A DNA stretch of 43,817 nt from a virus (taxonomy: Duplodnaviria > Heunggongvirae > Uroviricota > Caudoviricetes): positions 1 through 43,817 of the IMG/VR virus record IMGVR_UViG_2558860161_000008; one strand, written 5' to 3'. Below are positions 4,020 through 4,135 of the stretch, one piece after another (positions within the stretch are counted from its first letter, which is position 1; every line of letters begins with the position of its first letter). Position numbers and translations under genes: made by a program. The notes under the pieces are model-generated. The model searched no databases, was not told the DNA's origin, and saw only the letters and a list, made by a program, of their open reading frames with translations.

Positions 4020-4135
4020 TTTATATGCGCTGCACCGCGCTGAATTCTGCTAAAAGGAAGCTCTCACCATCCGGCGATTATTGAGTCAATTACGTTTCCA
4101 TAAATGCCCCCGCAGGGGCATTTGCAGTAATGAAA

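Follow-up and report, generated by a model that had tools for sequence, protein, structure and literature searches.

The locus lies in the window, by which we mean the whole stretch of 43,817 nucleotides that was analysed. The window is a lambdoid prophage, and the region considered here is 95-99% identical to mEp460, SfV, SfIV, cdtI and Stx2c-type phages; the CPS-53 cryptic prophage of E. coli K-12 carries this locus as yfdP-yfdQ-yfdR. A hairpin, designated H1, is located in the gap between the yfdQ-like and yfdR-like genes. The features of the leftward transcript are listed below.

3471..4007, minus strand: yfdR-like gene for a YfbR-like HD 5'-deoxynucleotidase, 178 aa from ATG 4007
4017-4013, minus strand: GGAGA, Shine-Dalgarno (SD) sequence of the yfdR-like gene
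4013..4144, minus strand: whole leader, matched by covariance model R1 with 104 bits
4027..4040, minus strand: H3 hairpin, GCGC-GGUGCA-GCGC, 9 nt upstream of the SD
4041..4063, minus strand: conserved single strand after H2, GAGAGCUUCCUUUUAGCAGAAUUCA in the window and GGGAUUCGUGCAACCAAAAUC in most genera
4064..4077, minus strand: H2 hairpin, UCGCC-GGAU-GGUGA, with the consensus UCGCC-N4-GGCGA
4078..4101, minus strand: A/U-rich single-stranded linker between H1 and H2, AUGGAAACGUAAUUGACUCAAUAA, 24 nt, 71% A+U
4102..4123, minus strand: H1 core hairpin, 9 bp, UNCG-type tetraloop closed by C-G
4091..4135, minus strand: extended irregular outer helix around H1, consensus CGYUKC ... GAARCG, weak in the window
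4136..4960, minus strand: yfdQ-like gene (DUF2303, 274 aa, Pfam E 3e-92), directly upstream of H1
5026..5388, minus strand: yfdP-like gene, which together with yfdQ forms an optional cassette between H0 and H1
5407..5426, minus strand: H0-like hairpin, CGACC-UUGCAG-GGUCG, preceded by GUGGAGAAACUAAC
about 5520-5565, minus strand: DicF-like terminator, GGUACCAGC...GCUGGUACC then GUCCUUUUUAC, with U5
6455-6477, minus strand: cI terminator, a perfect 10-bp hairpin AAAACCGGGG-AUA-CCCCGGUUUU with U7, annotated in SfV

Pfam confirmed that H1 is situated between two co-directional genes, YfdQ-like and then YfbR-like HD, as had been proposed in a sequence-only reading of this DNA. The gap of 116 bp given there is true for a GTG start at 4019; however, the conserved start of yfdR is ATG 4007 (MSFIK..., as annotated in K-12), and the gap is therefore 128 nt. 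The label of an early-left operon was a fair one, since the gene order of the SfV record (cI, terminator, orf33, terminator, orf32 (yfdP), orf31 (yfdQ), orf30 (yfdR), ... xis, int) runs from cI through yfdP-yfdQ-yfdR to xis and int. The promoter scan found no promoter-like site in the yfdQ-yfdR gap, sigma-70 promoters included. A match to the H1 region was detected in 3001 of 5426 complete E. coli genomes. Genomes with any copy had it in a median of one place and always in this prophage context; the K-12 copy of H1 is at NC_000913 2474869-2474890.

Several other features of the window were observed. Both canonical terminators, cI and DicF-like, belong to the same leftward unit as H1. The former, which can also be read as CCGGGG-UAUC-CCCCGG followed by U7, directly follows the cI-like repressor gene (6498-7151). 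A full-length match to STnc100 was present at 5523-5746 on the minus strand (40.9 bits versus a gathering threshold of 47, E 7.6e-7), and its 3' part (5531-5585) is DicF-like and ends in the DicF-like terminator. The segment resembles a DicF-like sRNA carried on the leftward transcript, and because such a DicF/STnc100-like element is found upstream of yfdP, processing of this RNA is plausible. Directly past the DicF-like terminator, a long-range hairpin AAAACAGAGAAGA...UCUUCUCUGUUUU (5427-5519, minus strand) is a candidate RNase III site on read-through transcripts, and its counterpart in yfdQ-less relatives has an 18-bp perfect stem. An 81-aa ORF with no Pfam match (5826-6071, plus strand) lies opposite the leftward operon, between a pL-like promoter (6411-6382, minus strand) and the sRNA region; SfII and SKA5 also annotate opposite-strand genes at the corresponding site. 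In addition, isrK (8413-8489, plus strand, 63.7 bits) and C4 antisense RNA (8514-8601, plus strand, 82.8 bits) scored above the Rfam gathering thresholds and constitute an antisense-RNA immunity or anti-repressor module of the P1/P7/Gifsy type in a lambdoid prophage. The left end of the window is without an integrase. By eye against annotation, an ORF at 1-573 (plus strand) resembles the Panacea-domain protein of strain KN13-4, and a small ORF at 1250-1558 (minus strand) may correspond to the PrtN-family gene of the same strain.

On the plus strand, H1 reads AAATGCCCC cgca GGGGCATTT (4102-4123). The hairpin described previously, ATGCCCC (4104-4110), cgca loop (4111-4114) and GGGGCAT (4115-4121), was recovered with the same letters on this strand. 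Its 7-bp stem is present, but the flanking AA/TT extend it to a perfect stem of 9 bp at 4102-4123. The minus-strand (coding) RNA is AAAUGCCCC-UGCG-GGGGCAUUU, running from 4123 to 4102 of the window and starting 12 nt after the TGA stop of the yfdQ-like gene (4138-4136). When folded alone, these 22 nt gave -15.0 kcal/mol on the minus strand versus -13.2 on the plus strand; 0 to 1 of 200 dinucleotide shuffles equalled the folding energy (z about -3), and H1 was retained in the minimum-energy fold of the entire intergenic gap. In the whole window, 5 distinct hairpins had a perfect stem of 9 bp or more and a loop of 3-8 nt; its dinucleotide shuffles had a mean of 0.93, a value that counts every stem/loop combination separately. 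The loop is UGCG in the window and UACG in SfII, both of which are C(UNCG)G tetraloops. Tetraloops of this type confer extra stability, and the loop fits an RNA role for H1.

The occurrence of H1 in other organisms was assessed by scanning a YfdQ alignment against one genome per species, which yielded 80 loci with 39-99% protein identity; a YfdQ scan of viral contigs gave near-identical loci only. In most of 77 loci, from many genera, a stable hairpin was found 0-15 nt past the DUF2303 stop, and in a few YfdQ loci the best hairpin was further downstream. Within Enterobacterales, the arms of H1 vary while pairing is kept, as in AAAUGCCCC/GGGGCAUUU, AAAUCCCCG/CGGGGAUUU, UAAUUGCCCU/GGGGCAAUUA, AAUAGCCCUC/GGGGGUUAUU, AAAUGCCAC/GUGGCAUUU and UAAGCGUCG/CGGCGCUUA. 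RNAalifold recovered the exact H1 helix from a MAFFT alignment of 47 sequences representing diverse Enterobacterales loci, in which 96.8% of the cells of the 9 core pairs were paired and 5 pairs had compensatory changes. For the whole tested structure, none of 500 column shuffles scored as high as the real alignment, and pairing fell from 89% to about 40-49% when the 3' partners were shifted by 1-3 columns. The spacer or loop of the homologues ranged from 3 to 8 nt. Selection acts on H1 as a structure of the gene-sense RNA: its core pairs in the 47 sequences comprised 29 G.U/U.G cells versus 0 A.C/C.A cells, and the gene-sense RNA is the selected strand because G.U pairs would be mismatches on the opposite strand. 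H1 is not a REP/BIME-like dispersed repeat, its sense-strand covariance match in the window being single.

H1 is followed by further conserved structure, together forming a leader of about 130 nt in the order H1, A/U-rich linker, H2, single strand, H3 and SD. Model R1 gave 27 bits for the antisense strand of the leader site and found no second sense copy in the window. The sequence-only reading had placed the hairpin correctly but missed this larger conserved leader, and H1 is not tied only to yfdQ-yfdR. In the 16-pair helix that includes the H1 core, 83% of cells were paired and several positions were often unpaired; pair 15/55 of the outer helix (alignment A5) was CG in 50, UA in 24 and UG in 7 sequences. 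H2 and H3 were 99.8% and 83% paired, respectively, in an alignment of 84 distinct sequences that was fitted to the model and hence leans towards it. In the same alignment, H3 had compensatory changes at all four pairs of its variable stem, which carries a conserved GUGCAG loop. H2 takes the form CACC/GGUG in K-12 and UUGCC/GGCAA in other taxa, with one pair reading CG in 30, UA in 11 and UG in 6 sequences. The linker segment is also conserved and appears in the alignments as GAAGCGUAAUUCC.UUAAUUA.

Searches for this leader among known RNAs were negative. Rfam 15 had no match on 4013-4144 of the window at the gathering threshold or at E<=10, and no leader match at E<=1 in six representative loci; a literature search found no occurrence of the leader sequence strings. 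The combination of covariation with no Rfam match makes the leader a candidate new cis-regulatory RNA family.

Other candidate elements in the gap were rejected. The ATG within H1 opens only 11 codons and is missing in other genera, and a small ORF was discarded. No conserved boxA-like motif (CGCUCUUA-like) was seen by eye, and the H1 and H2 loops vary freely, which does not fit a boxA/boxB nut site. A sigma-54 promoter over H2 would have a GG-GC spacing 2 nt over-long, and a DnaA box at TTATCGCCA matches at only 7 of 9 positions.

Phages lacking yfdQ provided further information on the leader. Scanning viral contigs with a leader motif, the segment just after H2, detected 80 loci, 41 with yfdQ upstream and 39 without. 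In the 39 yfdQ-less loci, H0 (GGCGG-UGGCAG-CCGCC) lies immediately next to an H1 homologue whose outer helix (CGUUUC...GAAACG) is well formed. Since the same leader occurs in phages with neither yfdP nor yfdQ, these two genes behave like a cassette placed between H0 and H1. SfII and SKA5 also have no yfdP-yfdQ, and sequence upstream of 5407-5426 is joined to the loop-proximal part of H1; the junction, ACCG|CCCC-UACG-GGGGCAUUU, still forms a 5-bp hairpin. Matching begins at about 4119 of the window in SfII, SKA5 and several E. coli genomes, and homology to strain KN13-4 stops at about 4088, 14 nt past H1. The leader is retained beside yfdQ when the downstream gene differs. Its occurrence without a gene directly upstream implies that protecting yfdQ mRNA is not the sole or original role of H1, which belongs to the leader and not to yfdQ alone. 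In L178 and similar yfdQ-less contigs, the 13-nt GGAGAAACUAACC was observed before H0 and again before the start codon after H3, and these copies bracket the leader (about 165 nt) in the manner of a direct repeat.

We tentatively suggest, with clearly less than even confidence, that the leader of about 130 nt (H0/H1-H2-H3) is an undescribed, widely distributed structured RNA that controls elongation, processing or translation of the left operon and has cassettes inserted between its hairpins. It is possible, to the same limited degree, that its range covers the early-left transcripts of SfV/mEp460/ST64B-like lambdoid prophages across Enterobacterales, CPS-53 included. A separate and rather doubtful proposition is that H1 is one module of a larger, undescribed cis-acting leader RNA (H0, H1, H2 and H3) whose function as a whole is something other than mRNA-end protection, such as control of elongation or antitermination, translation control of the first downstream gene, or release of a processed regulatory RNA. 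Conservation of about 130 nt across many genera with covariation in H1, H2 and H3, the conserved single strands GAAGCGUAAUU and GGGAUUCGUGCAACCAAAAUC and the GUGCAG loop of H3 are consistent with this proposition, as are the variety of downstream genes, the position right after H0 in the 39 of 80 viral contigs without yfdQ, and the lack of an Rfam match; the leader also lies downstream of the DicF/STnc100-like sRNA region, in a type of operon known for RNA processing. However, H1 alone is kept after yfdQ in Proteus, Providencia, Xenorhabdus and Morganella, with an SD about 12 nt further on, and the E. coli version of the otherwise conserved single strand after H2 is strongly diverged. Insertion of yfdP-yfdQ puts H0 and H1 1.3 kb apart, yet both are kept. 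Long-range pairing or a pseudoknot found no support either; pairing of GAAGCGUAAUUCC with GGGAUUCG was rejected, with inconsistent registers and no RNAalifold support.

Less probable still, and in our view unlikely, is a leaky intrinsic terminator or attenuator comparable to the lambda tL terminators, which would lower transcription of yfdR and the genes beyond it unless the polymerase is antitermination-modified or a ribosome ending yfdQ keeps the hairpin from forming. H1 resembles intrinsic terminators in having a GC-rich stem (5 of 9 pairs are G-C) and in starting so close to the stop codon. At the base of the stem, moreover, A consistently predominates in the 5' strand and U in the 3' strand, a pattern shared with bidirectional terminators. 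Its GC-rich core is followed by AUUUAU, and the depositors of the Ayreon record label the homologous 40 nt a terminator. The UUUAU after H1 is, however, short and consists of the last three U of the stem plus AU. Among the 47 homologues, the 8 nt that follow the full stem hold 1-2 U and the 8 nt that follow the GC core 3-5, whereas the U-tract of an intrinsic terminator would have roughly 5 or more U per 8 nt directly 3' of the stem. H1 was absent from the terminator scan's list of terminator-like sites, and the earlier statement that no U-run follows it holds by the measure of that scan. The commonest tails are AUUUAGUG, AAUUAGUG (3 U in 8) and AUUUAUGG; tails of H1 score 0.7-1.9, far below the 3.4 and 5.1 of the model and canonical comparison tails.

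The U residues are also poorly maintained. One tail position has A instead of U in 13 of the 47 sequences, and homologues in Pseudomonas and Marinobacter retain the GC hairpin with zero U; those in Morganella have a true U-run, GGCGGCAUUUUUAUAUU, which favours the terminator reading. In the SfV record, the authors marked two sites of this operon as terminators, and H1 is not one of them. Furthermore, nearly every locus has a co-directional gene with its own SD about 12-110 nt past the hairpin, the distance in Proteus being only about 12 nt. The conserved sense structure and the weak, unconserved U-tract, together with a linked downstream gene and no promoter-like site, are the reasons to prefer an RNA element over a classical terminator, and on sequence grounds H1 is better read as not being one. 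The corresponding part of the sequence-only reading is thus borne out by covariation, sense-only G.U pairs, the weak U-tract and the downstream gene with an SD; its further attribution of H1 to processing or stability is something that we, too, only infer.

That the inverted repeat acts as DNA, as a protein-binding palindrome or a mosaic-exchange linker with an incidental RNA hairpin, is very improbable: homology breakpoints do fall on both sides of H1 (about 4119 and about 4088), but a hairpin at the border of functional RNA modules would predict them just as well, G.U pairs are found on one strand only (29 versus 0), and a loop or spacer of 3 to 8 nt with compensatory arm changes is a poor fit to a dimeric DNA-binding site.

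The best explanation, to which we assign somewhat less than an even chance, is that H1, as a stem-loop between cistrons, stops 3' exonucleases or delimits a processing site; cleavage, block and effect on expression would be as follows. H1 would form on the leftward (early-left) polycistronic mRNA just past the yfdQ-like stop, with most transcription proceeding through it into the next gene. If an endonuclease then cuts the A/U-rich linker that separates H1 from H2, or if transcription terminates further downstream, the resulting end would be one from which 3'-to-5' exonucleases (PNPase, RNase II) are barred by H1, and the upstream yfdP-yfdQ RNA might retain a stable 3' end at a defined position. 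H2 would cap the start of the downstream RNA, and the outcome could be that segments of one operon differ in mRNA stability and hence in expression. The linker is a candidate target of an RNase E-type enzyme. Hairpin, AU linker and hairpin, with no U-tract and with obligatory read-through, form the arrangement typical of an intercistronic boundary for processing and stability.

Dar & Sorek 2018 (PMC6061677) describe E. coli mRNAs with steady-state 3' ends just past stable stem-loops without U-tracts, which guard against PNPase and RNase II. H1 likewise is a stable sense stem-loop with a conserved structure and no U-tract. The 94 nt downstream of H1 contain 17 C and 26 G (23 C and 24 G in a consensus-type member) and do not constitute a C-rich, G-poor rut region; a Rho-linked variant of the boundary is unsupported because the region is not C-rich. 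RNase III is unlikely to be the enzyme acting at H1 since the core helix is only 9 bp; the extended helix has 16-18 positions with mismatches in yfdQ-less relatives and is weak in the window. Three supplements with E. coli 3'-end or operon data (Adams 2021, TERMITe 2025 and SMRT-Cappable-seq 2018) contained no yfdQ or yfdR entries, and the published yfdQRST paper has nothing on transcripts or terminators. Some observations count against the exonuclease-barrier model: a barrier plus a cut site would not require the degree of conservation seen in the single-stranded segments and the H3 loop, the stem base is A-rich/U-rich, and one depositor chose the terminator label.

If true, the boundary role would make H1 a well-supported case of a non-terminating intercistronic stem-loop that shapes expression of a prophage early operon. 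Over half of the complete E. coli genomes carry H1, K-12 among them, and it is thus easily tested. Terminator predictors, and at least one phage record, may mislabel such hairpins as terminators. In addition, the location of yfdP-yfdQ exactly between two hairpins suggests that modules of mosaic phages can be bounded by RNA structures. Current understanding is not overturned by these findings, and the biology of H1 is solid but ordinary.

H1 can be compared with several known systems. The T7 early RNase III sites (R1.1 and others) and the lambda N-leader and sib sites are cleaved in a way that leaves a stabilising 3' hairpin on the upstream RNA. Like H1, they are irregular hairpins between phage early genes; however, their helices span about two turns (around 20 bp), versus the 9-bp core and weak outer helix of H1 in the window. 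The dicF/dicB operon of prophage Qin, whose leftward transcript is processed to release an sRNA, is of the same kind as the operon here, where the DicF/STnc100-like element lies upstream of yfdP. No homologue of H1-H3 was seen by eye in the Qin dicF-dicB spacer and R1 had no match there; elsewhere in the Qin locus, R1 gave one weak match of 16.9 bits.

Lambda tL1-tL3 are Rho-independent terminators inside lambdoid pL operons. They and the two canonical terminators of the window share with H1 a GC-rich hairpin near a stop codon with A-rich 5' and U-rich 3' flanks. Unlike them, H1 has no run of at least five U, its U positions are not conserved, and its downstream gene needs read-through. Intercistronic stabiliser hairpins, such as REP in malE-malF and the papBA site, give segmental mRNA stability in operons. 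H1 is similarly a hairpin between co-transcribed genes, and a stabiliser of this type would raise the upstream over the downstream message; REP is, however, a dispersed repeat, whereas the window contains just one sense copy of H1, with other conserved hairpins after it. The protective stem-loops without U-tracts in E. coli (PMC6061677) mark the ends of Rho-terminated units with rut just downstream, whereas H1 is intercistronic and its downstream region is not C-rich. As in those cases, H1 is a sense stem-loop just past a coding region.
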